64,000 nt of DNA, from the IMG/VR virus record IMGVR_UViG_3300044972_002389, positions 102,892-166,891 of that record. One strand, given 5' to 3'. Positions 16,484 to 64,000 of the stretch are shown piece by piece. How positions within the stretch are numbered: position 1 is the stretch's first letter; each line of letters begins with the position of its first letter. Under the pieces are notes generated by a model that worked only from the letters and a program-made list of their open reading frames with translations, was not told where the DNA came from and did not search any database. Origin of the DNA: a virus. The position numbers and the translations under genes are program-made.

Positions 16484-17371
16484 ATGCTGCTGCACACATT
16501 AGTTGACCGAAAACTCATACACCCGCCCAAGTGGTTGCCCGACAACACTCAATTTCTGGGCTATGCTGGTAGTGCTGCCTATGGTGTCAGCAACGACACG
16601 AGTGACATGGACTGCTTTGGCTTCTGCATCCCGCCCCGTGAGATTGTGTTCCCCTTCACCGACGGCGGCAGGGTGTATGGCTTTGGCACACAGGAACAGC
16701 GGTTTCGAGTGTGGAGCGAGCATCACATTCAGCTGCCGGATCAACGGAAAGAGTTGGACTTTTCTATTTATAATATCGTTGATTTTATGCAACTGGCGAT
16801 GGAAAATAATCCAAATGTTTTGGACGTTCTCTTTCTTCCCCGCCGCTGCATTCTCCACAGCACCAAAATCGCAGAGCATGTGAGAGAGCATAGGAAAGAG
16901 TTCCTCCACAAAGGAGCTATGGGAAAACTTCGGGGATACGCATTTTCACAAATTTCAAAAATTCGCAACAAAACCAACAGCAGCAATCCCAAAAGAGCTG
17001 CCACTATTGCTGAACACGGATGGGATCTGAAGTTTGGAGTGCATGTAGTGAGGCTCATGCTGCAATGCGAGCAGATCCTGGTAGAGCATGACCTTGACAT
17101 TGAGCGCAACAGCGAGGTGCTCAAGAGCATTCGGCGAGGTGAGTGGACACTAGAGCAGCTGGACAGTTGGTTTGATGTCAAGGAAAAATCTCTAGAGACA
17201 CTACATGCCAACAGCACGTTGCGAGATAAGCCAGATGAGAAGAGGATCAAACATCTACTTCTTGACTGTTTGTCAATGCACTATGGCCCTCTCACCACCG
17301 GTGTCAAGCGAGAAACTGGTGTTGATCAACTGGTAAATGAGCTGCAAACTGTGCTGGATAGATATCGATAA
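16484..17371 (+). CDS. predicted nucleotidyltransferase (Pol-beta superfamily)
   Basis: GSAAYGVSNDTSDMD fits the GS-x9-13-D-x-D nucleotidyltransferase motif. 295 aa. Confidence 0.5.
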   Translation: MLLHTLVDRKLIHPPKWLPDNTQFLGYAGSAAYGVSNDTSDMDCFGFCIPPREIVFPFTDGGRVYGFGTQEQRFRVWSEHHIQLPDQRKELDFSIYNIVDFMQLAMENNPNVLDVLFLPRRCILHSTKIAEHVREHRKEFLHKGAMGKLRGYAFSQISKIRNKTNSSNPKRAATIAEHGWDLKFGVHVVRLMLQCEQILVEHDLDIERNSEVLKSIRRGEWTLEQLDSWFDVKEKSLETLHANSTLRDKPDEKRIKHLLLDCLSMHYGPLTTGVKRETGVDQLVNELQTVLDRYR

Positions 17372-27574: not shown

Positions 27575-28786
27575 ATGAGCAAGTTCAGTTGCCCTGTGGT
27601 GCGTGTGGCCGCAGTCGAAGAACATCCGAATGCGGATCGCCTTTCTCTTGTGCGCCTTGAAGGCCTCGGTTATCTCTGCATCGCAAACAAACTAGAGGAT
27701 GGTAGCCCGCGCTACAAGCCCGGTGACTGGGTCGTATACATTCCCTCAGCCTCGGTGCTGCCTGAATGGCTGCTCAAGGACATGGGATTTTGGAACGAAG
27801 ACGCTGGTAAGGGTGTGCTGGCAGGCAGTGATGGCAACCGTGTGAAGCCACTCAAGCTGCGTGGTATTTTCAGCGAAGGTGTGCTGTATGGGCTCATTGC
27901 ATATGGTGATGACGATTGCCTTTCTGCTGATTTTGGGTCGGCGACGGATGTACATGTAGTAGGCAAAGACAGTCTTGAATATCCAGTCAAGCTAGGCGAG
28001 GATGCTGCTGCAATCTTGGGCATCACCAGGTGGGAGCCGCCCATTCCCGCTGCGATGTCTGGTGAAGTTGCCAGTGTTGCTGAGGCTGCTCTTACCTACG
28101 ATTTTCAGCGTTGGGAGAGCGTGCCTGACATCTTCGAACCTGGTGAGGTGGTGGTGGCCCAAGAAAAAATTCATGGATCTTGTACCATCATCCAGTACTT
28201 CCCAGGCATGGACCATCCCGAGATGTTCCCCGACCATGCAGGCTACCGCAGCATCACTGTCAGCAGCAAGGGACTAGGCGGTCAGGGTTTGGTGTTCAAG
28301 AACAACGAAGCCAACGCCAACAACCTCTATGTGCGGGCACTTGGCACACTGCTAGCCGACCATGACCTCGCCGGGCTCCTCCACAGGATGAGCAAGGTGG
28401 ACGGCGGTGCTCATCCGGTGGCTATCCTGGGAGAAGTTTTCGGCAAGGGCGTGCAGGACCTCGACTACGGCACCACTAAGCCCACGTTCCGGGTGTTCGA
28501 CATGCGGATCGGGCGGGAGTGGCTAAGTCCCGATGCCGTGGCCTACTGGGCAAAGGACCTGCCCTGTGTACCTACCCTCTACACTGGCCCCTTTGACCAA
28601 ACTGCCATTGAGGCTGTGAGAGACGGTGTCACAACGGTGGGTGGCACCAATGTGCGGGAAGGTGTGGTGGTGCGCAGCCTGGTTCCCACCGAGCATCCCC
28701 TGCACGGTAGGAAAATCTGCAAATTCATCTCTCCGGCGTATCTGCTCCGCCGAGTGAAGAACGGCGAGGCAACGGAGTTCAACTGA
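27575..28786 (+). CDS. ATP-dependent RNA ligase, Rnl2-like nucleotidyltransferase domain fused to N-terminal tRNA-binding OB domain
   Basis: N-terminal VAAVEEHPNADRLSLVRLEGLGYLCIANK resembles the tRNA_bind (Trbp111/EMAP-type) OB fold. VAQEKIHGSCTII matches T4 Rnl2 motif I (VAREKIHGTNFSLII). EVFGKGVQDLDYG, REGVVVR and RKICKFISP parallel motifs III to V. Confidence 0.7.
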   Translation: MSKFSCPVVRVAAVEEHPNADRLSLVRLEGLGYLCIANKLEDGSPRYKPGDWVVYIPSASVLPEWLLKDMGFWNEDAGKGVLAGSDGNRVKPLKLRGIFSEGVLYGLIAYGDDDCLSADFGSATDVHVVGKDSLEYPVKLGEDAAAILGITRWEPPIPAAMSGEVASVAEAALTYDFQRWESVPDIFEPGEVVVAQEKIHGSCTIIQYFPGMDHPEMFPDHAGYRSITVSSKGLGGQGLVFKNNEANANNLYVRALGTLLADHDLAGLLHRMSKVDGGAHPVAILGEVFGKGVQDLDYGTTKPTFRVFDMRIGREWLSPDAVAYWAKDLPCVPTLYTGPFDQTAIEAVRDGVTTVGGTNVREGVVVRSLVPTEHPLHGRKICKFISPAYLLRRVKNGEATEFN

Positions 28787-29196: not shown

Positions 29197-29208
29197 GTAT
29201 CGACTGCA

Positions 29209-29290: not shown

Positions 29291-29302
29291 GTCGGGGCCA
29301 CG

Positions 29303-30914: not shown

Positions 30915-30939
30915 TGAAGCTACACAAGGAGAACAACAA

Positions 30940-31422: not shown

Positions 31423-31570
31423 CAACAAAGGACACTGCCTGTGCTATTGCTGATTGAACTCATCGGTGCTCTGGTGCTCATTGGCGTATGTGCCTATGGT
31501 GCCAGCAAACTGATCGAAAGTTTCTACGATCGCAACCGAACCCCTCCCGACCGCAAGGACCCCAACTGAT

Positions 31571-32491
31571 ATGTGGAATCAACCTCCGCGTGACTCCAAT
31601 CCTCGAATCAACCCTCTACAGGAGACTCCCCGAGTGAACGCTCGATTCATCGCTACCATGGTAGGTGGCGCAATGGCTGCTCTGCTGGCACTCACAGTGA
31701 TCCTCGGCAGCTGGTACACAGTTGATGAGCGTCAGCGCGGTGTGCTGCTCCGCAACGGCAAGCTGGTGAGCGTGGTGCAGCCAGGGCTGGGATTCAAAAT
31801 CCCCTTCATCGACAATGTGGTGCTCATGAGCACCGAGACCGTCCTGCTGCGACTGGACAAGGAAGCGGTCTACAGCCGAGACCAGCAACCTGCAACTATC
31901 ACCTTCTCGGTGAGCTGGCGTGTGAGCGAAGACAATGTGGACGATGTCTACAAGGAGTTTGGCGGGCTCCGAGGAGTTCAAGACCGTGTGATCCTGCCGG
32001 GTGTGCGTGACGAGCTCAAGAACGTAATGGGTCGCTACAACGCAGTCACAGCGATTCAGGATCGCACCCGACTGGGCACAGATGTCAAGGCGGCCATTGT
32101 GGCCAACATCAAAGGGCCGTTTGTGATCGAGAATCTGGCTATTGAAAACATTGATTTCAGTGACGCTTACGAAAAATCCATCGAACAGCGAATGCTCGCG
32201 GAGGTGGCTGTTGAAAGAGATCGACAGGATGCGATCCGAGAGAAGGTGCAGGCTGAAATTGTTGTAACCAAAGCGCAGGCCGAAGCTGATGCAGTCAAGG
32301 CACGAGCTGGAGCTGAAGCTGAAGCTATCCAACTGCGCGGCGAAGCTGAAGCCAAGGCCATCCGGGCCCGAGGCGATGCACTTCGCGCGAACGCAGAGCT
32401 AGTCACACTTACGGCTGCAGAGCGATGGGACGGTAAGCTCCCTACCACTATGGTCCCAGGTGCAGCACTGCCCTTTGTGCATGTGAAGTAA
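31571..32491 (+). CDS. SPFH/band-7 (HflC/prohibitin-like) membrane protein
   Basis: N-terminal TM segment. TVDERQRGVLLRNGKL...PGLGFKIPFID is SPFH-like. C-terminal Ala/Glu-rich coiled coil AEADAVKARAGAEAEAIQLRGEAEAKAIRARGD. Confidence 0.7.
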   Translation: MWNQPPRDSNPRINPLQETPRVNARFIATMVGGAMAALLALTVILGSWYTVDERQRGVLLRNGKLVSVVQPGLGFKIPFIDNVVLMSTETVLLRLDKEAVYSRDQQPATITFSVSWRVSEDNVDDVYKEFGGLRGVQDRVILPGVRDELKNVMGRYNAVTAIQDRTRLGTDVKAAIVANIKGPFVIENLAIENIDFSDAYEKSIEQRMLAEVAVERDRQDAIREKVQAEIVVTKAQAEADAVKARAGAEAEAIQLRGEAEAKAIRARGDALRANAELVTLTAAERWDGKLPTTMVPGAALPFVHVK

Positions 32492-33083: not shown

Positions 33084-33364
33084 CAGAAGACAGAGTCTTC
33101 CACAATGCGCTGCTTTTGTTTCCCAAAGATCTTTTCTGCTGCTCTGTTACACTTGGCGAGGAATACTACCGCCAACAATACGAAATCTTGGATTGGCTAC
33201 GCCAACAAGGACCTGGTGACACTGGAATTGGTGATCCACCACAAGGTGAGTGCGTTTGGGCATATACACAGCTTTTTGGATACCAGTATATCGCTTTCCC
33301 CACTAGGGAACTGGTGACGCATTTTCAGCTGGTTTGGCAAAACAACACAGGACATAGTGGTTGA
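33056..33364 (+). CDS. possible LTW-family relative
   Basis: C-terminus FPTRELVTHFQLVWQN resembles the family motif. Cys/Trp-rich. Confidence 0.4.
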   Translation: MEFHCDSQVTEDRVFHNALLLFPKDLFCCSVTLGEEYYRQQYEILDWLRQQGPGDTGIGDPPQGECVWAYTQLFGYQYIAFPTRELVTHFQLVWQNNTGHSG

Positions 33365-33389
33365 CACGGATGTGCAGACTCTGTATGTT
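33361..33389 (+). promoter_or_regulatory. candidate sigma70-type promoter
   Basis: TTGACA-17-TGTATGTT, then AAGGAG and ATG 33414. Confidence 0.4.
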
Positions 33390-33413
33390 GTGGGTGTTGC
33401 AAAGGAGACGGAT

Positions 33414-34139
33414 ATGCGAATTGATGTGCCCAGCATCGTAAATGATCCCCAGATGAGAACCTTGCCCTATTGGCTGGAGGTATATCCCAATCAGGATCAA
33501 GCTCGCCGGGCTCGAGCACTGGCTCGCAAGGCGTATGATCGCACACGGCTAGCTGAGGTGCAGCGTTGGCGCTGCTGCTGGTGTCACTGCGAGATGCGTG
33601 GCGAACAAGGCTTCAAGAACAGTGCCACCATTGAGCACATCACTCCTCGCAGTTGTGGTGGCACTGACCACATCACCAACTTGGCTGTGGCGTGTGGCCG
33701 ATGCAACAACCGTCGAGGCAACACGCCCTGGGAAGATTTCCTGCAGGCTATGGAAATGAGTCGGCCCGCGCCTGAGACTGGCAGCTTTCGCTCACTGGCT
33801 TTTGAACGTAAGATGCGCCGAGAGGCTGCTGAGCAGAACAAGCGCATCAAGCAGTTGACTCATTTGGTGCGCAACCACGAGGTGCAAGCCACTGCTACTC
33901 AAACGCGACGCGAACAGTGCAAGTCACTGGAAGCCCAATACTCAGACATGCTGCCAGGATTGCAGCTGGCTGGTTTCCAACGAGCCAAGAGGATGCGTCG
34001 CGAAGTTGACCGTCAACTGGCACTGCAAGCCCTCTCACAAAAGGTCAGCAACCCTTTTGAAGTGGACAGTCGGCCCTGGCGCATCTACGAGCGTATGCGT
34101 AACAAGCAGAGTGTTGACACACTGCAAGCAGCCGCTTAA
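33414..34139 (+). CDS. HNH endonuclease
   Basis: CCWCHCEM...ATIEHITPRSCGGTDHITNLAVACGRCNNRRGN is an HNH motif with a C4 zinc site. ATG at 33414; the ORF-track start at 33357 is a GTG. Confidence 0.7.
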   Translation: MRIDVPSIVNDPQMRTLPYWLEVYPNQDQARRARALARKAYDRTRLAEVQRWRCCWCHCEMRGEQGFKNSATIEHITPRSCGGTDHITNLAVACGRCNNRRGNTPWEDFLQAMEMSRPAPETGSFRSLAFERKMRREAAEQNKRIKQLTHLVRNHEVQATATQTRREQCKSLEAQYSDMLPGLQLAGFQRAKRMRREVDRQLALQALSQKVSNPFEVDSRPWRIYERMRNKQSVDTLQAAA

Positions 34140-35511: not shown

Positions 35512-36729
35512 ATGCACTACACGTTTCCCGAGATCACGCACCTGGATCAAGTGCTGGAAGCTGTCCAGGGTGTGGAAGGCTTCATTGTAGCCCAGCGGCC
35601 CTGGGGCACTGTGGTCAACTACATTCAGATGGGCCCGGACATGTTCCCCGAGGTCCATACTGCTGGAGGCAGCGCCAGCATGCGCGAGCGGCAGACTCGA
35701 CTCAAGGCTATCCGCCGGGAGTGTAGGGGGCTGCTGTTCAGCCTTGATGGAAAGTTGGTGAGCCGCGCATTTCAGAAGTTTTGGAACGTGGGCGAACGGC
35801 GCGAGACTTTGATTGAAAACATCGATCTCACTCAGCCACACATCATCCTTGAGAAGTTGGATGGAAGTATGATTCGTGCTCTACCTCTAGGTAAGGGCTA
35901 CTGTCTTGCAACCAAGATGGGGCCCACTGCTGTAGCAGCACAGGTTGAGCCGTTCGTGGCAACTCGAGACAACTATGACCGATTTATCCGAGACACACTG
36001 GAGCAGGGATACACTGCCTGTTTCGAGTGGTGTACTCGTCAACAAAAGATTGTGTGTGATTATCCAGTTGATCGACTGGTGCTGACTGCTGTGCGTCACA
36101 TCAACTCGGGTGAGTATCTCACCTACTCTCAGATGCAGGAACTGGCGGCCGAGTATGAGCTGGATCTAGTCAAGGCCTATCCTGGTACTGTGGCTAGCAT
36201 GGAGCAGCTCGTTCGGGAGACGCATGAGCTGGAAGGCGAGGAGGGGTGGATCATCCGGTGGGATGATGGACATATGGCCAAGTTGAAATCGGCCTGGTAT
36301 GTGCGTATCCACCGTGCCAAGGATGCTCTCACGCAGGAGAAGAACCTCATCGACCTCATGCTGGCGGAAAAGCTGGACGACGTCAAGAGCTTTCTGCCTG
36401 TGGAGGACCTGGCTCGCATCGACGCCTACGAGAACGCCTTCTGGACGGGTGTGGGGCAAACTGCCTACATATGGAAGGACCAGTATGTCAAGCTCCGGCG
36501 GCAGTTTGGTGACGATAGAAAGCGGTTTGCACTGGAGGCAGCACCGGGTCTTGAGCCCAACCTGCGTAGTGCTGTGTTCAAGGTCTGGGCCCGTGAGGGC
36601 CACGTGGACTGGCGTGAGCTGGTGTGCGATGTGATCCGCAAATGCACTGGCACGCAGACCCGGGTGGACGAGGCACGCTCACTGTTCCGTGCGCCGCGGT
36701 GGAGCCAGCAAAGTGTGGGAGACGAATGA
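35512..36729 (+). CDS. rnlA: T4 Rnl1-family RNA ligase
   Basis: Collinear matches to T4 Rnl1: [25 protein letters not shown] vs [40 protein letters not shown] vs ILTKEDGSLV (motif I KxDG); [19 protein letters not shown] vs [43 protein letters not shown] vs [24 protein letters not shown]. Confidence 0.8.
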   Translation: [405 protein letters not shown]

Positions 36730-46999: not shown

Positions 47000-47206
47000 A
47001 TGAAAACAATAGCAGTAATATTTCTTTCATATGTAGGCGCGTTGTGCGCCTTTGCTGCTAGTGGTTTTCTTGCCAGCTGGGCATATCAGTTAAATGGATG
47101 TATATGGACCTCAAGCGGTGTGTTTGGGGTCAGTTTTTTGGCTATTGTAACTGGATTTGCTGGTGTAATTACAAACTTGTTTGACTTCTCCGACTGGTTC
47201 CGTTGA
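47000..47206 (+). CDS. small membrane protein (about 68 aa)
   Basis: Internal Met of ORF 46883..47206. Two to three hydrophobic helices. Confidence 0.4.
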   Translation: MKTIAVIFLSYVGALCAFAASGFLASWAYQLNGCIWTSSGVFGVSFLAIVTGFAGVITNLFDFSDWFR

Positions 47207-47230
47207 CAGCCAAAAGTTTCATGCTATAGT
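47203..47230 (+). promoter_or_regulatory. sigma70-type promoter (consensus family)
   Basis: CGTTGACA-16-TGcTATAGT, 5 nt before ATG 47236. Confidence 0.5.
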
Positions 47231-47235: not shown

Positions 47236-48468
47236 ATGAAAAAGTTATCCTTACATAGTATAGTAGTTTTGATTGGTCCCACTAAGAGTGGCAAAAGCAC
47301 ATGGGCCCAAAACCAGTTTGACGCTGATGAAATCATAAGCCTTTCTTCAATCAAGAAAGAGTTGACAGGCAACAATTCAACAGTGGATATTTTGCCAAAT
47401 ATTTGGCACGAACTCTATCGTAGAGTTGATATTCGTATCGCCAACGGGCAACGTGCAGTAGTTGATTCCACTAATCTAAAAGACAAGGACAGATTTACTT
47501 TTCTTGATATTGCCGAAAAGTATGGTGTGGAAGTCTATTACAAACCTTTTGACCTTGAATGGGGCACAATACAGCAAAACTCTGGTTCTTGTTATGACTT
47601 TGACTCTTTGAGAAAAAGCTATAGTATATGGAAAAATGCTCGCACACAGGTGTTACAGGGCGATAATAAACGAGCTGTTGTGCTGTGTGGTGACGAAACC
47701 ACTGTTGGATTTCCAAATGAATTGCAGAGTGCAAGGATTTTAGCAGTAGGCGATGTTCATGGCAATTTTCCAGCTATGCAGCAGGCAGTGCAAATGGCAC
47801 AACAGTTACACGCAAAGCTAGTGTGGCTGGGAGATATTGTGGACTATGGCGCCAATAATCTCAAATGTTTGAAACTTGCATATGACACTGTTCGAGACGG
47901 GCAAGCACTTATGATTTGGGGAAATCACGAAAGAAAAATTGATCGCTGGATTAGGAGCGACTTGGGTGAAACCTTTAATGGCAAACTTAGCGAGTCAAAT
48001 CTATCTACTATAAGAGAAATCAACAGTTTGAATGACTTGCGGAAAAAGAAGTTTCTTGCAGCTTGGACAGCACTAAGAAACTGGAGTTTTAACCACCTAA
48101 CAGTGGGAAAATTTTTGTTTACTCATGGTGCAGCAACACCTGCCATGTGGGCCAACAAGGATCGCAGATTGCAAGGTGTTTGTGCAAATATGGCCTATTT
48201 TGGTGAGGTAGACACTGTTTCACCGACCAAGAATGATGGATATCCAAACCGTATCTGGAATTGGGTTCAAAACATACCTGCTGATCATACTGTTGTTGTA
48301 GGGCATGATTGGCTTGATCGTGTCAGTTACAACGTTGTGGAAAAAGCAAATTCTTGTGGCGGCCGGGCATTTGTTACAGATTGTGGTAGCAGCAAAGGCG
48401 GTCGTTTGGGTGCACTTTTTGTTGATCAACATAGCAAAGAAGTTTTGCCTTACTATTTTGACACTTAA
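47236..48468 (+). CDS. pnk: polynucleotide kinase-phosphatase: T4 Pnk-like P-loop kinase domain fused to calcineurin-like metallophosphoesterase
   Basis: [20 protein letters not shown] vs T4 Pnk [58 protein letters not shown] vs T4 [36 protein letters not shown]. The C-terminal half has GDVHGN, GDIVDYG and GNHE, which are MPE/PPP phosphoesterase motifs rather than the T4 HAD phosphatase. Confidence 0.75.
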   Translation: [410 protein letters not shown]

Positions 48469-48496: not shown

Positions 48497-49078
48497 ATGA
48501 ATGCCACTCTGGTACTCAATGCTGATTACAGTCCTTTAGGTGTAGCTCCGTTGAGCACACTCAATTGGAAAGAAGCTATCAAGCTGATTTATCTTTCTCA
48601 AGTTAATGTAATAGAGCAGTATGACGATTGGTTTGTTCATAGCCCCAGCGTAACTATGCAAGTGCCCAGTGTTGTTGTTTCAAAAACCTATGTTAAGAGC
48701 AGTAGGACTGTGAAGTTCAATAAACAAAATTTGTGTATACGAGACAACTATACTTGTCAGTATTGTAATCAAATATTTGAGCTGAAAAGCCTTACTATTG
48801 AGCACGTTATTCCACGATGCTGTGGAGGCAAAACAACCTGGACTAACGTTTCAATGGCTTGTTCTAGATGCAACACCCGAAAAGGACATCGATTAGATAT
48901 ACATCCACAAATCTTACCTTACAGACCCAGTATTGGTGAAATTATAAGCAAAGTTAAAAGACAGCCAGTTGTTGTGCCCAACAGCAACTGGCTGCCTTAC
49001 ATTGGGTGGACACCCAGTTTGGTTTCAGTACGAGAGCCTTACAAAAATATTGACACGGTTGCATCAAAACACACATAG
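48497..49078 (+). CDS. HNH endonuclease
   Basis: CQYCNQ...LTIEHVIPRCCGGKTTWTNVSMACSRCNTRKGH. Confidence 0.7.
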   Translation: MNATLVLNADYSPLGVAPLSTLNWKEAIKLIYLSQVNVIEQYDDWFVHSPSVTMQVPSVVVSKTYVKSSRTVKFNKQNLCIRDNYTCQYCNQIFELKSLTIEHVIPRCCGGKTTWTNVSMACSRCNTRKGHRLDIHPQILPYRPSIGEIISKVKRQPVVVPNSNWLPYIGWTPSLVSVREPYKNIDTVASKHT

Positions 49079-54047: not shown

Positions 54048-57000
54048 TTATGCTGGTATCGACCCAGGTTGTGACAACAAAAATTGAGCTTGGTAAGTGC
54101 TGCTATATTGTAGCCCTAGTCCACCATAAGGCCACTGATACCCACCTGGGATAACTTGCCGCACACTACCATCTCGCACTACGCTGGTAGTTGGGTGAGA
54201 CATAGCTGTTGTTTTCCAGTCTTGTTTGAAGATTATAAGTCCAATATTTTTATTGCCTGCAGGAGGTGGTTCAAAAATTGGAGCCAATGTCTGAGAGGGG
54301 AATTGCAGATAAAATCCAGGGGCTGCATTTGAGGGGTTGCTTACTAGCATCCAATCGTTTTGGAGCTTGCCATCCACAATAACATACGCATTTACCATTC
54401 CTGCTTGCCATTCTCCTGCGTTTGTAATAGTTACAGGATACAAATCACTGTTGCCTGTGCTACTCCAATACTGTGCCACAAATTTATCACTAATGCCGCC
54501 AGGTGTTCCCAGTGTGCCACGATTGATTTTTCTCAAAACAGCTTGGTTAGGAAATGCAGTTGAGGCCGCAGGAGCTTTGTCAAAATATTCAATTCTTTCA
54601 CCCTCAATCCAAATAACCCCAGGTCGTTTGTCATCAGGTTCAAGAAGAGTGTCGCCATTTGCTACAAAAATTTCCTGATCATTCCAGTTCAACACCTGAG
54701 TAAGAACGGTCCTGTCCTGATTCCCAAGGCGTAGGTATTGTGTGTCGTTATACACATTTGTCACAGCACGGAATGCAACACCATCTTTGCTGGGCAACGC
54801 TGTGGGATAATAGGCTTGAATCTCATCAGCTGCTGTCAAAGTGTAATGATTTCCTAACTTTAGGTACCAACTGTTTCCGGTTTTGACTATGGTATAGTCT
54901 AAAATCCAGCTTAAGCTACTGCCGTTGAGCCATACTTGCACACTTTGGAACTCCAACGGAGTATTGGTGAATAGGTATTGGTTGCTGGAATCACCTGTCC
55001 AGACATCGTTATAAAAGGCACTTGCGCTGTCTTCACCCCAAGTTCTTACAACAATAGTATCGCCGTCAACCACCGCCCAACTTGCCAAAAGTAGGTTTGT
55101 TCCTTGGATTTGATAATCATAGTTTTGGGCGACTGGATCAGCCACTTCAATGTAAATGAAACTTTTATCTGATGGCGCTGTAGTGAATATTATTTGATTT
55201 CCAGCCAATGTATATTCTGTGTTAGGCAATACTGAGGCATTTAACCAAACTTGAATAAATGACCCAGGATCTGGGAAAATAGCCAAATTATATGCTGTTG
55301 TGTTGTTGTCACCAATTGCACTCAAAAGGTAGGGTGGCTTCAATCGCTTGCCGTTACTGTAGACCAGTGCATTGTTACTTTGTGCAGGATTGAATCCGCT
55401 CAAGGGATTATTTGGTGTATTCAAATTCAGCGGATACGTGAGCAATGGCAAGGTTACTACCAAACTCTGTAATTTTTGTAGACTTTGATATTGACTGCTG
55501 TATACCAAAATTACAATAGTGTCGCCAGGCAAAGGTGTAAATCCCAGTCCAATTTGACGATTGTCGGCAGGGTTTACACCAAAACTCACTGTAGGCACTC
55601 CATTCCAAGTCATCAGAATAGTGTTAGCGCCTATGGGTTGATCCATTGTGATCACAAAACTTGTGATGTCAAAAACAACAGTTTTAGTTTCTTGAATATG
55701 GCTGGAATAGTTAGCAATGCTGAACCCTGTGCCAGTACCAGGTGCTCCACCACTTATGGTTACACCCACTTGTTGGAGGCCAACATTCTTATTCAAATAA
55801 CTACCACGAGTCAACGGCAAGATGCTGGCTACTCCCCATTGTGGAGTAATCAACCCTCCTATACCTGTTCCATTTGTATACCATTCATTTTGACTTATGC
55901 TGGGCTGAGTATAATAGCCTTGATTTACAATACTCACAGCAGTAATTTGTCCAGCTACACCACCAAAAGCAGTAGTGCTGTCAACCTTGATTACCAAAGT
56001 TTGCGTTCCGCTCCCGTATTTGAAATACAAGAGATCTCCTACCTTGTAGCCAGATCCTGGCTGATTTACATTTACAGCAGTTGCACGTATTGCAGTGACT
56101 AACACTGTTGTAGATGTGTAGCTCTGTGATGTATCACTTAACACGATAGTATCGTTCAAGTTGTAATCAATTCCTTGATTTACTATGCTCCAATTTCCGA
56201 GACCAGGGGTTGCTCCACCAAAACCAAAGCTGGTAATTACAACTGATCCCACTGGCGGGAAAACAAAAACAATGCTATTGCTGCTGGGATCATATACATA
56301 ATCAGAGGTTGGTCCTAGAGTTTTCAAAATTCCGCCTACACTGACAATAATGTCAGCAGCACTGAACACTGGTTGGCCAATATAAAATCTATCAGTAATG
56401 CTGTCGCCAAGCCAACTTTCAGACAACACATTCCCAAAGCCCACTGTGGGTTGATTGGCAACATCTATTATCAAGGTTTCTTTTCCTTGAAGCGGGAACA
56501 ACTCTTCAGGATGATTGCCTTCCACATGTGGTCGACTCAACCCCTGTCCATCATATACAGCATCAAGCGTGCCTCCTAGGGCACTTTCAAATGTGCTGCC
56601 TGCTTCTGCTACCCAAATGTTGGGTTTGGCTACAGCACTAAGTGGCGCCAGTGCAAATTCAAGACTTGTGCCGCCCCAACGTAGGACAAAGGTGGCATTT
56701 ACGCCTGAACCGCCAGAGGCTTGCACTGCTGTTCCACTGGGAGTCAGTGTGTATGCCCCTGGAAAGACCACCTCAATTTTCAAAATTGCACCTGTCAAAC
56801 TTGTGTTGACTACTTTCAGCTGAGCAGGAATAGTATAAGTGCCTCCAGATACAGAGAGTATATCATTTACACTATATCCTAATCCTTGATTAGCAACATC
56901 CACAGCAGTTATCCAGTTTTTGACTGTCCAATTGAGAGGAGTGTTTTGAAGATTACCATTTACCCAAACACGCAAGTCATTTGGAGCTTGTGGGGCCTGA

Positions 57001-60000
57001 GGCAGGGCAAACTTTGTTTGCAGCCCGTCCCCTTTGAATACCCAATATTGTGGCCTTGCTCCACCATTTATGTATTGATCAAATAACCGATCAACTTCTT
57101 GGCTAGTGTTGTCCCAGCCCAATACGCCATCCCACACTGGCTCGCCCCAACGACCATTTAGATTGAAATCCAAACCATCCAACACTGTTCCTTTGGGAGC
57201 ACATCCACTGATCAGTAAGGGATCATTTGGAGGAGGCATGCTAGGAGTGGGCTGATACAACTGTTGAATTCTGTCTGCTGCTCCGTTATCCAGTTGATAT
57301 CCAACCAATTCAAATATGCCTTGATTGAACACAAACAAACTCCAAAGCCCAATGTTGTCGTAAATTACTTTGATTATTTCTCCATTAGGCAAGTTTGTCA
57401 GAGCTTTCATTTCTTCGATAGTGTCAATAAACCTATTTGGCACAGTATTCTCGCTGTATCCAGGACTGTAATAGTCTTCTGCGGGCACACACGCCAGTCG
57501 GTCCAACACAATTTTTGTCCTTGTGCTGCGTACACTGAGGTTTGCTATATCAAATACAGTCACAGTAACAATATCTCCAACACCTGGTGTGAAGTTGAGT
57601 TCAACGAGAGTGCTGTCGTCTAAATTTATCTCATAATCATTAGTTAATAAGTTGTTCCATCGAACTTGTGTAAATTGCCAAGTTATGGGATTTGTCATGC
57701 TTACTATTTGAGAAATGCCGTCACCAATAAATGTCTTACGCTCAAGATAGCTAGATGCGTATACATACGCCTGCACAACATCGTTAGTGTTAGGCACAAA
57801 GACCAAATCAATTATTGAGTTGTCTCCAGGACGCAAATTCCAAGCTTGAGAAAGCTTGCTATTCCAGTATACCAAAACATTTTCAGGTTTGGTGCTAGTG
57901 CTTAGTTGAAGAGATTTGGTTGATCCGTTACCAGTTAAGGTCACTGTTTCAATCAATGCACCACTGCTGGCTTTGTAGTTGTCGTACCACGGCTTGTATA
58001 TGGTATCTCCGGACAAAATCGCAAGATCAACTGGGTTACTGACATTCAAGATTGAAACATTATTGTTCAGGTCAATATAGGGAGGGTTATCCAAATCGCT
58101 GCTGTTGCTTTCCCAATAGTCCGAGACCACTCTGTAATCCACAAATTGGCGTATGACAACGTGGTAGGGTTTAACCTCTTGAATATATTTTTCCAAGCTG
58201 TCTATTTTACTTGGGTCATAATAGGCTGAACTCAAGAGTTGTTGGCTGAAACCTTTCAAATTGATAAAGCTTGTTTTGAAACACCAATCTACGAAATTTT
58301 GTTCAGCCAGCACATGGCTCACTAGCTCAAAAAATACCATGTTACGTTCATTTACATCACTGTCAACTTTCAAAAGTCCCACAGCTTTGTTGTTTTCAGG
58401 CCACAATCCCTGCAAAATATAGCTCAATTCTAGGCGTGTATCATACTCCCAACCTTGATAATCAACTGCATAACTTCCTCCACTGAAGCCCATGCTGTAC
58501 TTTTCGTAGTCATAGAGATTGTCACTGAGTTGTAGATTGCCGTTTTGTACACCTACTACGGTCCATAAGGTTTCAGAATCAGGCGTGTATTCAAAAAGAT
58601 TCCAACGGCCATTGCCTGTATTCAACACTTTGACCAAAGTTCCAGAGTCAACCACAAGAGTGTCACGGTCAGCCAAAGTGGCAACAGTAGCCCCAATCAG
58701 GGTGTCGGCACTGATGCCGCTGGCATACCAATCTACCAAGTACCAAACTTGGTTAGTGTCCCATGCTTGCATACGCTCTAATGAAAACTGGTTTTGTCCT
58801 TGATAAAGCCAAATGGTCCAGCGGTTGTTGGTGGCAGCACTTACATCTACCAAAACTTTGTTACCAGGTATTAGGCTGGGAATCAAAGCATCTCTTGCCG
58901 CCAAAGTAGCTACGTAATAATCCCAATTGCAGGGCAATATGCCTTTTACTGGCCGTACAATTTGCCACTCTAGGGGATCAATTCCCAATTTCAAAATGTT
59001 CTTGTTGTTTTGAATATAGGTTGTTGGCAATAGCTGTGATGCACCTTCCAAAACCAACACTTGTGCATCTATTAGGTTGTCATCTATGCTGTCAAAATCT
59101 GCAGACCTCATCAAGATCCATGGATTGTTGAGCGAGCCAATGTCCACTACATCATAAATTCCATTTTGATTAGGTGTTTGTGTGACAATAGAGCTGGTAA
59201 GAGTAACTGGATTTTGATTTTTAACAATTATTCGGTCTCCCAAATTTACTGTTATACCATCAACAACCAATGCACTATAAGATGAGCCATTATAGGTTAA
59301 GGTAGCACCCTTGCCATTTTCCCCAGGATAGTAAACAGTGTCTAGAGCAGTTGTGGTTGCCACTCGAGCATTGGCTTTGGTATTTTTTTGGAGAGGCTGT
59401 GGCTCTACGCTCTGAAAATACTGTAACCAGCCAAGCCTGTCAGGGTCATCCAATGGCGGCACACTGCTGCTGCTAAGGAGGCTGTTGATTTTTTTAACAA
59501 AAGCTCTCCTAGCAGTAATACCATCCTTGAACCAACTTTGTGAAGGTCGTGTCAGCATGCCATACTTGCTCATTTCAGGCAGTCGCAAATTGGGAACACT
59601 GTTGCCTACGTTGTTGAATTCCACAAGACTATCACACATTTTGCTCCACAAATCTAGTGTAGGTGTGCTCAAAGGATCGTTGGGTCTCAACAATGTCCAC
59701 TCTTTGTAGATTTTATCTACATTTTCTCTACTTGTATAATTCACTTGCCAGACAGTGTTGTTTTCATCCAAGAAACTGCCAATGTTTGCTAACAATGCGC
59801 CTGTGCTGCTGATTGCGGCCCACCAGCTTTGGTTTTGTGTTTGTGGACTTTCAACAATTTGACTCAAAGATGCAACACTTATCTTGCGATCTGGCACGTT
59901 GGGCACTGTGGTTTTGTTTTTTACCCAAAAGTAATAGGCATTTGTGTATTGGCCGCTTTCATTACGCTCACTTGCCAACACGTAGGGATAATCAGCACCT

Positions 60001-63000
60001 TTTACTGATCCTGTAGGGGTTTGATCTCCCCCTGTGGCTGCTGAGTTGCCCGCTGTAACAGCGCCTGCCCAAGATGAAGGAGGCACAAGGCTTCGTATCC
60101 ATTCATAAATGTCAATGCTGATTCCTGGAGCAATTTGTCCCCAATGTCTCCGGCGGTAGCTGTCTGTTCCAATTTCATAATCAATAAACCTTGTTGTGCT
60201 TAAATCCCACCAAGTTTGCCCCACTTGGTTTGGGCCCCACGCTGTAGAGGGGTCAACTTGATACAATCTTGAATCTCCAGCATTATAGCTCGCTGGATCC
60301 CAGTGTGTGCGATATGTTACTTCCTCATTTACAAGCCCTGGCAATGCACCTTTGCTGGGGTCCCAAATATTCAAATGAGCTAGTGTTTGTAATGTTGTTT
60401 TGTTATAAAGTGTGCTGGTCAATAATAGGCTGGTGTCAACTTTCTTGTCTTCTCTGCGATATTCAAACCAGACACCATATTTTTGATAGACTTTCCAAGG
60501 TTCATCTTGATTACCATCAACATAGGCAAAATCTCTTTGTGTCCAACCACCAGGAGGGGTTGCGTTATTGAATGCAGCATATGTGGGAAATCTTATACTC
60601 CAGTATTGTAACACTTGTCCATTGGCACCAGTAGCAGAGGTGGTTGCCTGCACATCAAAAGTATTCCTAGTGACATTGAAAACTGAAAAAGTACCATCCA
60701 GTCTACCATTTACCCCTGTAACTCCGCTCAATACAAGGATGTTGCCATTTTGCAGATTGTGAGGCAAGCTGGTTGATATTGTTGTTTGATTCAATGTTAC
60801 AGGAGTAGTTTGTTGAATTTGCCAGGCTGGCCGGCATACTTTGTAAATGTTCCATCCAATAGCAGTGTCAATAAATTGCCAAACTCTGTCATGTGCCTGC
60901 AAGGGAGTATTTTTAGTTTCAAGAGTTTGAGAGAGACTAAACAACTCTGCTTGATCTTTGACATAATAAGTGGCCTCGGAAAATAACACGTATCCGCTGT
61001 TTGGCAAATCCCCTGGGGCTGAACCGTAGTGGCTTCTCAATGAGAAGTTTGGCGTTGCCTCACTTTTATACAAGACTCTACTGTCTTTGGGGGTTATTGT
61101 AATTGTGTCGTCATAAGCCAAATCTTCAATAGAGCCAGAGAAAAACTCAACCAACTGCGGATTACTTCTCACTTCAGTTTGCAGTAGCAGCACGTCAATG
61201 CCGTGAATAAGTTCGTTGCTGCCATAAGTACCCAAACGGAAAGCGTACTCTTCGTAGTAGCTAAAGCTTTCATTGGCATCAACCAGTTGAGTGTTTCGCA
61301 ACAAACTATCAATAGTGCCTTTTGTGCCTTTTTGTTTGATCATGCCTTGATAAAATTGAAACTGTGTGGTTTCATCCACAAGGAGATTGGTCAAATATTC
61401 GCGTTGTTGATAGCCCACTAAGTGAGTAGCCAACATGTTATATCTTTTAGGCAAGGCTTGCGACAGTGCGCTGGTGGCATTTGTATGCATCCCTGTGCTG
61501 TCGCTGTAATTGTAGGGAGTTGGCACATCTATGTTGTATAACTTGCGAATATCGTCAACAGTTTTTTCAAAGTTAGCTAAGATCTGGTTATTGACAATTA
61601 TCCGATCACCAATGGTAGATGTGGTTTGTGTTACTAGATAACCAGGCGCCTCAAGACGGCCTGCCCAGTCCATGCTCTTGTAAGTCTGTATCTTGAATCG
61701 GCTTTGTCTTACGTCAAACAGTGGGTCATACACAATATCGCCAAAAATTGTTTTGTTTTGGAACAGGAGTGCATGTTCAAGGCCAGTAGTGTAGAGTCTA
61801 ATGCCAAAAATGCCTTGATCATTCAAAGGTCTTACTGAAACTTGATCATCAATGCGCAAGAAATCTATATTTTGGACTTGAATTGGTCGTCCGCCACGAT
61901 CTAAAATCGTGTAGCTGCCATTTACTATGCCGCCGATGTTTTGAATAGTTCCAAAACTTGTGACAAATTTTGTTTTGAGTGCCAAAGGACTCAAGGCAAT
62001 GTAATTGCCTGCTGCCCAAGGTCCTTGACTCCAGAACAAGAACTCTCGGCCGCTCAGGCTCCAATCTTGCAATTGGCCAGTGGTGCTGGAATATTCATCA
62101 AAAATCCAACCTTGGCTGACTTGCCAACGCCCCAAGCTTACCAAAAAGTCAAATACATCTTGCTGTGTAGGCAAAATGGTACCATACGGCACTTTTTTAA
62201 CAGATGGCAACCCCAGCTTGTATTCAATAACCTTGATTTTGTCTACAATCACTGTTGTTTTTGGACCAGTAAGGTTACTGGGAATTACATAAAAGTTGGG
62301 ATCATAGCTGTCGTATCCAATGACTCGGTAACCCTCAGATCCTCTATATTCCACAATTACGCCGCTATAGAAGAACTCTTTTAAGCTGGCACTGCGTATG
62401 AGATTGTTGGTCACATCTTCTTGGGGGATCAACAAACTGTCGTTGGAGCTTAGACCAAAGCTGTCAACCAAAAGCTTAACACTTGTGCCATCAATAAATC
62501 CTCCAGCTCTGTATCCTAGAGTTACATCACTGTTGCGGATAACATTACCAAAATATTCTGTGACGGAACGACTGTCATTTATCAAATACTCACTTATCCA
62601 GTGTTGAATGCCGCATGATCCATAATAGCTTAAGTCACTGCTTAAGGTTGTTACATTTTGTGGATCTTCACGATGAACAAAAATGTCACTGTTGCTGATT
62701 CTTTTCCTGTAATCCTTCCAAACCCATTGACTGTTGGTTTGTGTGGCAAAAATCTGTTGGGCCCGTGGGCCGTCCCAGAGGTATTCAATAAATTGCGCTG
62801 GCTTGGCCAGATATCCTATCTGCGCCCAAATTTGGTCACTGTCAACTGCTGTAAGCCAGACATTTTCCAAAGGACCGCGGTCCCCAAATTTCCAATCGGC
62901 CCGGGCTTCAATTTCGCTAGGCAATGTGGTGACTATGCGAGCTGGACCAGGAGGCAACAGTTGCCCAAATTCGTCCACTGGCAAATATTGCATCAACCCA

Positions 63001-64000
63001 GGACGAGCATACGCCGGATCAATTCCCTGTCGTTGTCCTTGGCGTATCCTGCCATCTCTTAAATCATACCACAATTGGGTGTTGCCACTGGTGTAAGGTG
63101 CGGCACCATATTCTGCATTCCACCAAAGTGGTTGCTGACTGAAGCCCAACATTTCCCAAGGGCAAGAGTTGGGGCGATCAGTATCAAAAAAGAGAAAATA
63201 GATACCGCGCCAATGACCAGGCACTGGGTTGTTTTCTTGATCAGTGCAACTGCTGTAATTCCAACTAAAGGGATCATCTATTTTGTAGGTTGTGTTCTTA
63301 AATGCATCCAACTGATTTGTTGTTAACCAACGTTCAAAAACTGGATACAACATTGTTAACTGATCTTTGTAAGAGTAGTTTGTGGTTCTCCACTTGCCAG
63401 AAAATATCGTTTTGATATCAAGCTTTTGCACACTGTCAGGATTTCTGTAGCTGGCTGGCAGAGAGTTGAACAAATTTACTTCCAATTGCATCCAAGCTCT
63501 AGCCACAGGATGCGTCAACAGTTGAGGATCAACGGTGCTTGATTGCTGGTCAGCTATTGTTCCCAAGTCAGCACCGTTAAAATCTTGTAATACAACAACT
63601 GCACCATTGTGGCATCGGAGACTCAAGGGACTGTTGGGCTGGGTGACATCAAAAAATGCTGTTGGCACAAAACTGGGGGTGACTCCCAGCCGGGCTGCGC
63701 TTGCTGGGACAAATGTGGGTGTTATTGACTTTTCACTGCAATATCGGCCAGGAACGCCGTCAAAGCCGCTCATTGCCCAAGGACTGCTAAGTGTTTTGCC
63801 GACATTTATGGATTTCAATGCCTTATCTAGCCATTCACTAATGGGATTGGCCAAAGTCAGGCCTCCACTGTTGAATAAGTTAACTAAACTGTTGATGTAT
63901 TTGTTGTAAAAGCGGAGATATTCTTTTTGTGACCATTGCATAACACCAATGGGATCCAACAATGCATTACTGCTGGTCAAAGCAGATGTTTGTGCTATGC
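54048..64000 (-). CDS. giant virion structural protein (more than 3310 aa), 5' end beyond window
   Basis: Uninterrupted minus-strand frame to the window edge. The ORF-track start at 63980 is a TTG and the frame stays open upstream. No enzymatic motifs recognised. Confidence 0.7.
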   Translation of the reverse strand, partial: IAQTSALTSSNALLDPIGVMQWSQKEYLRFYNKYINSLVNLFNSGGLTLANPISEWLDKALKSINVGKTLSSPWAMSGFDGVPGRYCSEKSITPTFVPASAARLGVTPSFVPTAFFDVTQPNSPLSLRCHNGAVVVLQDFNGADLGTIADQQSSTVDPQLLTHPVARAWMQLEVNLFNSLPASYRNPDSVQKLDIKTIFSGKWRTTNYSYKDQLTMLYPVFERWLTTNQLDAFKNTTYKIDDPFSWNYSSCTDQENNPVPGHWRGIYFLFFDTDRPNSCPWEMLGFSQQPLWWNAEYGAAPYTSGNTQLWYDLRDGRIRQGQRQGIDPAYARPGLMQYLPVDEFGQLLPPGPARIVTTLPSEIEARADWKFGDRGPLENVWLTAVDSDQIWAQIGYLAKPAQFIEYLWDGPRAQQIFATQTNSQWVWKDYRKRISNSDIFVHREDPQNVTTLSSDLSYYGSCGIQHWISEYLINDSRSVTEYFGNVIRNSDVTLGYRAGGFIDGTSVKLLVDSFGLSSNDSLLIPQEDVTNNLIRSASLKEFFYSGVIVEYRGSEGYRVIGYDSYDPNFYVIPSNLTGPKTTVIVDKIKVIEYKLGLPSVKKVPYGTILPTQQDVFDFLVSLGRWQVSQGWIFDEYSSTTGQLQDWSLSGREFLFWSQGPWAAGNYIALSPLALKTKFVTSFGTIQNIGGIVNGSYTILDRGGRPIQVQNIDFLRIDDQVSVRPLNDQGIFGIRLYTTGLEHALLFQNKTIFGDIVYDPLFDVRQSRFKIQTYKSMDWAGRLEAPGYLVTQTTSTIGDRIIVNNQILANFEKTVDDIRKLYNIDVPTPYNYSDSTGMHTNATSALSQALPKRYNMLATHLVGYQQREYLTNLLVDETTQFQFYQGMIKQKGTKGTIDSLLRNTQLVDANESFSYYEEYAFRLGTYGSNELIHGIDVLLLQTEVRSNPQLVEFFSGSIEDLAYDDTITITPKDSRVLYKSEATPNFSLRSHYGSAPGDLPNSGYVLFSEATYYVKDQAELFSLSQTLETKNTPLQAHDRVWQFIDTAIGWNIYKVCRPAWQIQQTTPVTLNQTTISTSLPHNLQNGNILVLSGVTGVNGRLDGTFSVFNVTRNTFDVQATTSATGANGQVLQYWSIRFPTYAAFNNATPPGGWTQRDFAYVDGNQDEPWKVYQKYGVWFEYRREDKKVDTSLLLTSTLYNKTTLQTLAHLNIWDPSKGALPGLVNEEVTYRTHWDPASYNAGDSRLYQVDPSTAWGPNQVGQTWWDLSTTRFIDYEIGTDSYRRRHWGQIAPGISIDIYEWIRSLVPPSSWAGAVTAGNSAATGGDQTPTGSVKGADYPYVLASERNESGQYTNAYYFWVKNKTTVPNVPDRKISVASLSQIVESPQTQNQSWWAAISSTGALLANIGSFLDENNTVWQVNYTSRENVDKIYKEWTLLRPNDPLSTPTLDLWSKMCDSLVEFNNVGNSVPNLRLPEMSKYGMLTRPSQSWFKDGITARRAFVKKINSLLSSSSVPPLDDPDRLGWLQYFQSVEPQPLQKNTKANARVATTTALDTVYYPGENGKGATLTYNGSSYSALVVDGITVNLGDRIIVKNQNPVTLTSSIVTQTPNQNGIYDVVDIGSLNNPWILMRSADFDSIDDNLIDAQVLVLEGASQLLPTTYIQNNKNILKLGIDPLEWQIVRPVKGILPCNWDYYVATLAARDALIPSLIPGNKVLVDVSAATNNRWTIWLYQGQNQFSLERMQAWDTNQVWYLVDWYASGISADTLIGATVATLADRDTLVVDSGTLVKVLNTGNGRWNLFEYTPDSETLWTVVGVQNGNLQLSDNLYDYEKYSMGFSGGSYAVDYQGWEYDTRLELSYILQGLWPENNKAVGLLKVDSDVNERNMVFFELVSHVLAEQNFVDWCFKTSFINLKGFSQQLLSSAYYDPSKIDSLEKYIQEVKPYHVVIRQFVDYRVVSDYWESNSSDLDNPPYIDLNNNVSILNVSNPVDLAILSGDTIYKPWYDNYKASSGALIETVTLTGNGSTKSLQLSTSTKPENVLVYWNSKLSQAWNLRPGDNSIIDLVFVPNTNDVVQAYVYASSYLERKTFIGDGISQIVSMTNPITWQFTQVRWNNLLTNDYEINLDDSTLVELNFTPGVGDIVTVTVFDIANLSVRSTRTKIVLDRLACVPAEDYYSPGYSENTVPNRFIDTIEEMKALTNLPNGEIIKVIYDNIGLWSLFVFNQGIFELVGYQLDNGAADRIQQLYQPTPSMPPPNDPLLISGCAPKGTVLDGLDFNLNGRWGEPVWDGVLGWDNTSQEVDRLFDQYINGGARPQYWVFKGDGLQTKFALPQAPQAPNDLRVWVNGNLQNTPLNWTVKNWITAVDVANQGLGYSVNDILSVSGGTYTIPAQLKVVNTSLTGAILKIEVVFPGAYTLTPSGTAVQASGGSGVNATFVLRWGGTSLEFALAPLSAVAKPNIWVAEAGSTFESALGGTLDAVYDGQGLSRPHVEGNHPEELFPLQGKETLIIDVANQPTVGFGNVLSESWLGDSITDRFYIGQPVFSAADIIVSVGGILKTLGPTSDYVYDPSSNSIVFVFPPVGSVVITSFGFGGATPGLGNWSIVNQGIDYNLNDTIVLSDTSQSYTSTTVLVTAIRATAVNVNQPGSGYKVGDLLYFKYGSGTQTLVIKVDSTTAFGGVAGQITAVSIVNQGYYTQPSISQNEWYTNGTGIGGLITPQWGVASILPLTRGSYLNKNVGLQQVGVTISGGAPGTGTGFSIANYSSHIQETKTVVFDITSFVITMDQPIGANTILMTWNGVPTVSFGVNPADNRQIGLGFTPLPGDTIVILVYSSQYQSLQKLQSLVVTLPLLTYPLNLNTPNNPLSGFNPAQSNNALVYSNGKRLKPPYLLSAIGDNNTTAYNLAIFPDPGSFIQVWLNASVLPNTEYTLAGNQIIFTTAPSDKSFIYIEVADPVAQNYDYQIQGTNLLLASWAVVDGDTIVVRTWGEDSASAFYNDVWTGDSSNQYLFTNTPLEFQSVQVWLNGSSLSWILDYTIVKTGNSWYLKLGNHYTLTAADEIQAYYPTALPSKDGVAFRAVTNVYNDTQYLRLGNQDRTVLTQVLNWNDQEIFVANGDTLLEPDDKRPGVIWIEGERIEYFDKAPAASTAFPNQAVLRKINRGTLGTPGGISDKFVAQYWSSTGNSDLYPVTITNAGEWQAGMVNAYVIVDGKLQNDWMLVSNPSNAAPGFYLQFPSQTLAPIFEPPPAGNKNIGLIIFKQDWKTTAMSHPTTSVVRDGSVRQVIPGGYQWPYGGLGLQYSSTYQAQFLLSQPGSIPA

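Follow-up and report, generated by a model that had tools for sequence, protein, structure and literature searches.

Does a viral protein that unites a polynucleotide kinase (Pnk)-type domain with a metallophosphoesterase still prepare both ends of a broken RNA, or only one of them? The question is raised by a complete open reading frame (ORF) of 410 codons, from ATG to TAA, located at 47236..48468 on the plus strand of a viral DNA stretch of 64,000 nucleotides (positions 102,892 to 166,891 of the IMG/VR record IMGVR_UViG_3300044972_002389), referred to here as the window. From its sequence, the gene, carried by a phage, encodes a protein of two domains that is homologous to the kinase-phosphatase part of bacterial Pnkp and has no ligase domain. 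The reading favored as a whole, namely a ligase-less Pnkp homologue that acts as an RNA 3′-end phosphoesterase and in which kinase activity is weak or absent, is on balance the probable one.

Kinship with bacterial Pnkp

The protein comprises an N-terminal P-loop domain of Pnk fold (residues 1-150, 47236..47685; plus strand, as for all positions given within the gene) followed by a C-terminal binuclear metallophosphoesterase domain (residues 166-410, 47731..48465). Pfam AAA_33 matches residues 10-115 (2.6e-13), Pfam Metallophos (PF00149) matches residues 167-358 (4.4e-13), and residues 1-396 align with positions 1-382 of the 417 in the phrog_246 profile (E 7.5e-33). These matches far exceed chance, so the feature is real. 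Nor is the ORF a sequencing artefact, since contigs from many independent samples, the longest of 326 kb, encode exactly this protein. At the nucleotide level, a megablast comparison with 50,697 phage records returned no match to the gene.

Both halves of the protein are nearest to a single known protein, the Pnkp of Clostridium thermocellum (CthPnkp, with CthPnk for its kinase domain). When the single sequence is compared with the PDB, the CthPnk kinase structures 4mde, 4jst and 4gp6 are found at E 2e-7, with T4 Pnk as the next best match (0.014), and the CthPnkp phosphatase 4j6o is found at E 1e-4. A profile of 77 family members strengthens these values to 4e-20 for the CthPnk kinase and 2e-17 for the CthPnkp phosphatase, the next best being PP2A (1e-8) and lambda phosphatase (2.6e-7). 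An AlphaFold model of the 410-residue protein, computed from an alignment of the phrog_246-type family, has a mean pLDDT of 95.8 and a pTM of 0.93; in Foldseek this predicted structure matches the CthPnk kinase with TM 0.77-0.80 and the CthPnkp phosphatase with E 1.5e-12 and TM 0.70, while lambda phosphatase follows at E 2.4e-8. The top NCBIfam match, bacter_Pnkp (TIGR04075), reaches 98 bits where the cut-off is 750, and coverage of the model is confined to its N-terminal part. This low score is explained by the ligase half of the model, which has no counterpart in a protein of 410 residues.

These comparisons bear directly on an earlier sequence-only reading, according to which a T4 Pnk-like kinase had been joined to a calcineurin-type metallophosphoesterase in place of the HAD phosphatase. 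Its assignment of the two folds is borne out: Pfam, the PDB search, the profile and Foldseek agree on a Pnk-type P-loop kinase fold for the N-terminal half, and Pfam, 4j6o and Foldseek agree on a metallophosphoesterase of the C. thermocellum Pnkp kind, not of the HAD kind, for the C-terminal half. The structure prediction that it had proposed as a check likewise matches CthPnk and the CthPnkp phosphatase. The notion of a new domain swap, by which a T4 kinase would have acquired a foreign phosphatase, is rejected because the two halves run co-linear with a single protein already known from bacteria. As for the comparison with T4 Pnk itself, the collinearity holds (phmmer E 1.2e-4, with residues 8-26 aligned to T4 residues 3-21 and residues 74-130 to T4 residues 81-141), but the N-terminal strings that had been quoted are those of T4, and the phage protein reads IAEKYG.

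CthPnkp (PDB 4gp6/4jst/4mde for the kinase and 4j6o for the phosphatase), which is part of the Pnkp-Hen1 system of RNA repair in bacteria, shares its domain order with the phage protein, and the kinase alignment runs without gaps from the P-loop to about residue 110. Differences concern both the architecture and the surroundings. CthPnkp continues into a C-terminal ligase/adenylyltransferase, for about 850 residues in total, whereas the phage protein ends at residue 410 without a ligase. The bacterial gene has an adjacent Hen1 partner, whereas the phage gene has none; no methyltransferase match was obtained among the tested neighbors, and the flanking genes encode an AAA ATPase, a 68-residue membrane protein and an HNH endonuclease.

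Other known enzymes are more distant. T4 Pnkp (PseT; PDB 1ltq/1ly1) carries a DxDxT HAD phosphatase where the phage protein has a metallophosphoesterase; Pfam finds no HAD match, and the C-terminal half is assigned to PF00149. The T4 kinase is also a remoter match than CthPnk for the N-terminal half. In HD-Pnk (phage RM378, Runella) and in Pnkp1-Rnl-Hen1 (PDB 4xrp), a Pnk is combined with an alternative phosphoesterase or works with a ligase in trans, but their phosphatases are of the HD or HAD type and their sequences are not close to the phage protein. Full-length orthologues are found in the jumbo phages Atu_ph07 (gp253, YP_009611918) and Phosso (XYS97427), with 30-34% identity over 95-99% coverage.

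An invariant phosphatase site

The phosphatase active site is complete with respect to its metal ligands. The strings GDVHGN, GDIVDYG and GNHE, which the sequence-only reading had pointed out, are literally present and correspond to the three metallophosphoesterase motifs. According to the profile alignment to 4j6o, motif I (residues 172-177, 47749..47766) provides Asp173 and His175, equivalent to Asp187 and His189 of CthPnkp; motif II (residues 199-205, 47830..47850) provides Asp200, equivalent to Asp233; and motif III (residues 229-232, 47920..47931) provides Asn230 and His231, equivalent to Asn263 and His264. Further along the chain, His297 (48124..48126) and His357 (48304..48306) match the metal ligands His323 and His376, and Asp382 (48379..48381) matches Asp392. 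These eight active-site residues, namely the seven of the metal site plus His231, are invariant in all 77 aligned family members, and 208 of 226 relatives carry every residue of the DHD-Y-NHHHD signature. The C-terminal domain is thus predicted, by residue content and homology, to be an active phosphoesterase dependent on Mn2+ or Ni2+.

The main departure from CthPnkp lies in motif II, where Tyr204 occupies the position of Arg237. This is a property of the family, with Tyr at that position in 76 of 77 members. In CthPnkp, Arg237 is needed for the 2′- and 3′-phosphomonoesterase activities, whereas the R237A mutant retains an unchanged kcat as a 2′,3′-cyclic phosphodiesterase with a 3- to 6-fold increase in Km (PMC3675462). 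By analogy with these residues, opening of a 2′,3′-cyclic phosphate by the phage phosphatase is likely, while removal of the resulting monoester is uncertain.

Two structural elements complete the comparison. The Cth-loop, a Pnkp-specific stalk located beside the active site (PMC3675462), has a counterpart in residues 322-343 (FGEVD.., 48199..48264), which the profile alignment to 4j6o places, with small insertions, against Cth YGETTGETDEYGLPVRYDW. The β3-β4 hairpin of CthPnkp is missing: some 20 residues of 4j6o (33-52 of the chain) are left unaligned where the profile passes from position 187 to 189.

The same data allow two other activities to be weighed. In the database, the family is annotated as a serine-threonine phosphatase of the lambda NinI type, which would act on host or phage phosphoproteins. 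For such an activity, proposed from sequence, speak the presence of motifs I and III and the detectable kinship with lambda phosphatase. However, the label covers only half of the protein, the lambda profile match (2.6e-7) is far inferior to that of the CthPnkp phosphatase (2e-17), and the hallmark Arg of the PPP motif GDxVDRG is a Tyr. Lambda phosphatase (NinI; PDB 1g5b) is itself a single domain of 221 residues with no kinase domain, has Arg53 where the phage family has Tyr, and is devoid of the Cth-loop (PMC3675462). A protein phosphatase would moreover leave the fusion with a Pnk domain and the RNA-repair neighborhood unexplained. On relative scores and context, this activity is unlikely, and indeed very improbable.

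Another possibility is a small-nucleotide hydrolase, which would act on Ap4A or Np4-capped substrates in the manner of ApaH and PrpE, or on immune signals, either 2′,3′-cyclic or cyclic-oligonucleotide, as a phosphodiesterase of counter-defense, with the Pnk-like domain as a nucleotide-binding accessory. The scores in the NCBIfam equivalog models for Ap4A hydrolases are low (33 bits versus 340 for PrpE and 26 versus 176 for ApaH). The Ap4A-hydrolase version is considered unlikely, again on relative scores and context, and the small-nucleotide explanation in general has little probability, albeit more than that of a protein phosphatase.

Decay of the kinase site

The kinase half presents a different picture. 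Its Walker A motif, or P-loop, GPTKSGKS (residues 14-21, 47275..47298), is intact, with Lys20 and Ser21 equivalent to Lys21 and Ser22 of CthPnk, and Asp77 and Thr79 (Cth Asp78 and Thr80) are also retained. The acceptor-site segment S37-S38-I39-K40 (47344..47355), on the other hand, has Ser37 at the position of Asp38 and Lys40 at that of Arg41. The numbering follows from an ungapped phmmer alignment of residues 8-111 to CthPnk chain residues 10-113, in which residue n corresponds to Cth residue n+1, and Ser37 is equated with Asp38 on the strength of sequence alignments that contain no gap from the P-loop on. The lid region (residues 104-125, 47545..47610) has a T4 Pnk-like sequence, yet it is devoid of Arg and Lys; Gln114 stands opposite T4 Arg122, and a gap opposite T4 Arg126. 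Altogether, of the Cth catalytic set (Lys21, Ser22, Asp38, Arg41 and Arg120/Arg123), the first two residues are kept and the others, including both lid arginines, are missing; similarly, the positions of T4 Asp35, Arg38, Arg122 and Arg126 are not kept. Ser37 is not an error, because it recurs in independent samples and in the relatives P0002 (70% identical) and P0005.

The functions of these residues are established in CthPnk. Asp38, the counterpart of T4 Asp35, is the essential general base and Arg41, also essential, positions the acceptor; alanine substitution of either residue, as well as D38N, abolishes activity, and two arginines in the lid, Arg120 and Arg123, hold the γ-phosphate (PMC3902929). 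Since the Asp that would act as general base, the Arg that would position the acceptor and the arginines of the lid are all lost, the 5′-OH kinase activity of the phage protein is predicted to be weak or absent. The domain probably still binds a nucleoside triphosphate (NTP), and may serve mainly as a structural, dimerizing or RNA-binding module. Of the kinase-phosphatase label given by the sequence-only reading, the phosphatase part thus agrees with an intact site, and bifunctionality is doubtful in view of Ser37, Lys40 and a lid without Arg or Lys.

The fate of the kinase can be followed across the family, which is far from confined to the window: the fusion of a Pnk-like domain with a metallophosphoesterase, presented earlier as a variant, defines a large family of jumbo phages that includes Atu_ph07 gp253 and the Phosso protein. 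This family, phrog_246, is labeled ‘NinI-like serine-threonine phosphatase’. A word-indexed search yielded 193 clusters at 90% identity, nearly all of 370-425 residues and with both domains, many of whose members lie on contigs of 0.2-0.5 Mb; an exhaustive profile search yielded 363 representatives at 50% identity (E<=1e-30). Among cultured phages, the sole full-length protein relatives come from two jumbo phages, Phosso of Sinorhizobium (34% identity) and Atu_ph07 of Agrobacterium (30%), listed in databases as ‘metallophosphatase’ (XYS97427) and ‘NinI-like serine-threonine phosphatase’ (gp253), respectively. In 260 collected relatives, the order is kinase then phosphatase in 217, phosphatase only in 35 (some of them fragments) and reversed in seven. 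The reversed proteins, with the metallophosphoesterase ahead of the Pnk-like domain, are P0206 (locus L012), P0225, P0229, P0235, P0246, P0253 and P0259.

Within the family, kinase sites range from canonical to lost. The 77 aligned members comprise 30 with a canonical P-loop/Asp/Arg/Asp set, 10 with Glu at the position of the base, 18, including the protein of the window, that keep the P-loop with the base or the Arg altered, and 19 without a P-loop. In the alignment columns, position 37 is Asp in 35 members, Glu in 15 and Ser in nine, and position 40 is Arg in 62 and Lys in seven. When 226 relatives are considered, 60 are fully canonical, lid Arg included, and the P-loop is lost in about 112. 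In a neighbor-joining tree of the phosphatase domain, the proteins fall into two clades, one of which is uniformly canonical in its kinase. In the other, to which the window’s protein belongs, hardly any member retains the lid Arg, the residue at the base position varies and several sublineages have lost the P-loop, so that this clade shows a step-wise erosion of the kinase. The Atu_ph07 and Phosso orthologues stand outside the tree; they retain the canonical motifs GPSGAGKST, SSD..R and a WR lid, which the protein of the window does not, and by these full motifs they belong with the canonical kinase type.

Rates of divergence tell the same story. Pairwise identity in the kinase, divided by that in the phosphatase, drops from 1.08 in the canonical class to 0.65 in the class of the window’s protein and 0.52 in proteins without a P-loop, which points to relaxed constraint on the kinase and to the phosphatase as the conserved function of the family, as judged from these alignments.

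These results must be set against the view of a fully bifunctional end-healing enzyme, in which a 5′-OH would be phosphorylated by way of, for example, Lys40 and another acidic residue, and both ends would be prepared for the Rnl1-type ligase. Besides the intact P-loop, Asp77 and Thr79, this view can invoke the Pnk fold, predicted with high confidence in the model, the canonical relatives Atu_ph07 and Phosso, which keep every catalytic residue, and the presence in the window of a ligase that requires a 5′-phosphate together with no other Pnk. Moreover, all 12 members of the immediate subclade of the window’s protein keep the P-loop and Asp77. It is opposed by Ser and Lys at the positions of two residues that are each essential in CthPnk (PMC3902929), by the lid, by the faster evolution of the kinase domain relative to the phosphatase in this class and by the existence of sister lineages that have lost the P-loop altogether. 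A competent kinase is therefore a tentative proposition, with a modest share of the probability.

Neighboring genes and a proposed route of repair

Several genes of the window encode potential partners in RNA repair. A T4 Rnl1-type RNA ligase with motif I EKLDG is encoded at 35512..36729 (+; Pfam RNA_lig_T4_1 6.7e-26, T4_Rnl1_C 1.3e-7, PDB 2c5u E 3.8e-26) and is the likely sealing partner of the kinase-metallophosphoesterase protein. A second RNA ligase, ATP-dependent and resembling Naegleria Rnl, has an OB domain at its N terminus and is encoded at 27575..28786 (+; Pfam RNA_ligase 1e-18, PHA02142 OB, PDB 5cot E 2.7e-4), and RlaP, a nucleotidyltransferase of the RNA-ligase-associated Pol-β family, at 16484..17371 (+; Pfam PF10127, 1.3e-16). 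Genes for an Rv2179c-like 3′-5′ exoribonuclease (12915-13493) and a PTH2-like peptidyl-tRNA hydrolase (30904-31422) are also present. This content fits the RNA-repair genes that Iyer et al. 2021 (PMC7824862) describe for the ‘group 2.2’ jumbo phages; these authors also noted, in a few jumbo phages, RNA-repair sets that include calcineurin-like phosphatases. A gene at 10057-11319 (+) encodes a DUF2201 metallopeptidase followed by a vWA-like domain; DUF2201-vWA is a MoxR-associated co-chaperone typical of group 2.2 (Iyer et al. 2021, PMC7824862), and its presence supports the placement of the window in that group. A search of the 64-kb window with family hidden Markov models (HMMs), which covered six-frame ORFs of 60 residues or more, found no second Pnk-like kinase or phosphatase, and a scan for Walker A motifs there returned only the protein under study, the AAA ATPase and two spurious motifs. 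A tRNA scan found no tRNA genes in the window, which accordingly offers no direct tRNA linkage.

The immediate surroundings of the gene are conserved. Gene order in the window is AAA ATPase, 68-residue membrane protein, kinase-metallophosphoesterase, HNH, small ORF, ORF of ~237 residues, ORF of ~121 residues and ThyX, and all or part of this order is found again in Atu_ph07, Phosso and four divergent jumbo-phage contigs from metagenomes. ThyX lies further downstream in the Atu_ph07 locus and is absent from the Phosso stretch that was retrieved. The constant element of the shared block is the kinase-metallophosphoesterase/HNH pair, whether the kinase is canonical or not. RNA ligase or tRNA genes lie upstream of the orthologue in Atu_ph07 and Phosso; more broadly, genes for RNA ligase, RlaP, PTH2 or tRNA synthetase occur within 10 kb upstream in Atu_ph07, Phosso and the loci L009, L010 and L013, and none of these four kinds is annotated within 10 kb of the orthologue in L011.

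The gene directly downstream (48497..49078, +) encodes an HNH endonuclease of 193 residues (Pfam HNH_5, 5.5e-16). An HNH_5 gene of about 160-195 residues occupies this position in seven of seven divergent genomes, with orthologues at 9375-9935 in L001, 9529-10086 in L002, 11410-11985 in L009, 11129-11704 in L010, 11203-11790 in L011 and 9468-9953 in L013. These orthologues are 45-61% identical, which exceeds the conservation of the kinase-metallophosphoesterase protein. Such identity and constant adjacency argue for a core gene rather than a homing endonuclease: the HNH gene at 48497 behaves as a fixed core gene, possibly a partner, and not as a mobile element. In contrast, two other nuclease genes of the window, at 11343-12374 (-) and 33357-34139 (+), the first with NUMOD3 repeats and an AHH/HNH-like domain and the second with an HNH domain, look like typical mobile homing endonucleases.

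In the mechanism that the favored reading implies, the phosphatase domain would open 2′,3′-cyclic phosphates and/or remove 2′- or 3′-phosphates from broken RNA to leave a 3′-OH, as homology and genomic context suggest. The broken RNA would probably be tRNA. The resulting 3′-OH would then be used by the separately encoded phage ligases, that of Rnl1 type and the second one, and/or by RlaP. The Pnk-like domain, which lacks essential residues in a family marked by erosion of this site, would bind NTP and be a poor kinase or none. A 5′-phosphate, if needed, might come from another enzyme, or repair might require only the 3′-OH, both of which are speculative.

The last option can be carried further. 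The fused Pnk domain may repeatedly have been turned into a non-catalytic nucleotide- or RNA-binding ‘pseudo-Pnk’, within a fixed two-gene unit with HNH and in a route that needs only a clean 3′-OH. Damaged tRNA 3′ ends would then be trimmed and re-extended by RlaP or CCA-adding enzymes, without any kinase-dependent ligation. As a complete scenario this is doubtful, though it deserves as much consideration as full bifunctionality.

Several considerations weigh against the favored reading of an active 3′-end phosphoesterase with a weak or absent kinase. With Tyr204 in place of Arg237, it is uncertain that 3′ ends would be fully healed. An ATP-dependent ligase would still need a 5′-phosphate even with an inactive kinase, and the window offers no other Pnk to supply it. 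The constancy of the P-loop and Asp77 in the immediate subclade indicates that nucleotide binding is probably still selected, and residual or re-wired kinase chemistry is possible. The ligase genes lie 10-20 kb from the kinase-metallophosphoesterase gene rather than next to it, and since the shared block is generally syntenic, the linkage to RNA-repair genes is suggestive rather than specific. Finally, literature searches found no biochemical study of any phage kinase-metallophosphoesterase protein.

Other observations concern the surroundings of the gene. The small protein encoded directly upstream (47003-47206, +, in the window; 9742-9942 in L010; 9732-9932 in L011) is a predicted membrane protein of 66-68 residues with apparently two hydrophobic helices, conserved in related contigs with an eroded kinase. 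Just before the kinase-metallophosphoesterase gene, a near-consensus sigma-70-type promoter match (47203-47230, +; TTGACA, 16-nucleotide spacer, TATAGT and an extended -10 TG, 11/12 positions) ends 6 nucleotides before the ATG at 47236, with no evident Shine-Dalgarno sequence. It may reflect a leaderless mRNA or a chance match; the promoter and terminator scan gave consensus matches only and was not used as evidence. In L011, whose kinase-metallophosphoesterase protein has lost its P-loop, a gene placed directly after ThyX (14132-14584, +) encodes a P-loop kinase of 150 residues that resembles APS kinase (GLPGSGKT ... NADEVR). This protein could stand in as a separate kinase, even though it has only the P-loop in common with the family kinase HMM; it has no counterpart at the same place in the window.

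Elsewhere in the window, a GC-rich island at ~28000-32000 (GC 0.59 versus 0.43-0.48 on the flanks) spans the 3′ part of the second RNA ligase gene, a gene for an NAD-dependent epimerase/dehydratase (29455-30597) and the PTH2-like gene, and takes in the first part of an SPFH/Band-7 gene (31571-32491). At 29406-30597, two ORFs that each span 377 residues or more overlap in different frames. The island may have been acquired horizontally. Two giant virion structural genes are also present. One (2647-9783, -) encodes 2378 residues made up of many repeats and is matched over 11-23 stretches by phrog_23837, 4636 and 6002; the other (54048-63980, -) runs off the end of the window after at least 3310 residues and matches phrog_10938, a type of protein that reaches 3940-4132 residues in related contigs. 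Hair-like fibers have reportedly been described for phages of the Atu_ph07 type, and the two giant proteins may relate to them.

The combination of a Pnk-like kinase and a metallophosphoesterase has been known in bacteria since CthPnkp and was hinted at in jumbo phages, and is therefore not new in itself. In literature searches, no report was found of the size of the ligase-less phage family or its systematic mis-annotation, nor of the Arg-to-Tyr change, the fixed HNH neighbor or the repeated decay of the kinase site, in the protein of the window as elsewhere in the family. For the protein of the window, a ‘polynucleotide kinase’ assignment from the P-loop alone would probably be wrong, and the phrog_246 family as a whole (at least 363 clusters at 50% identity) should be re-annotated as ligase-less Pnkp-type kinase/2′,3′-phosphoesterases. 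The family constitutes a natural mutant series, in which about a third of members have a canonical kinase and about half have no P-loop, and in which the phosphatase is invariant with its Arg-to-Tyr change. Such a series could show how CthPnkp-type phosphatases partition cyclic-diesterase and monoesterase chemistry, and which end-healing activity phages need against host anticodon and tRNA nucleases.

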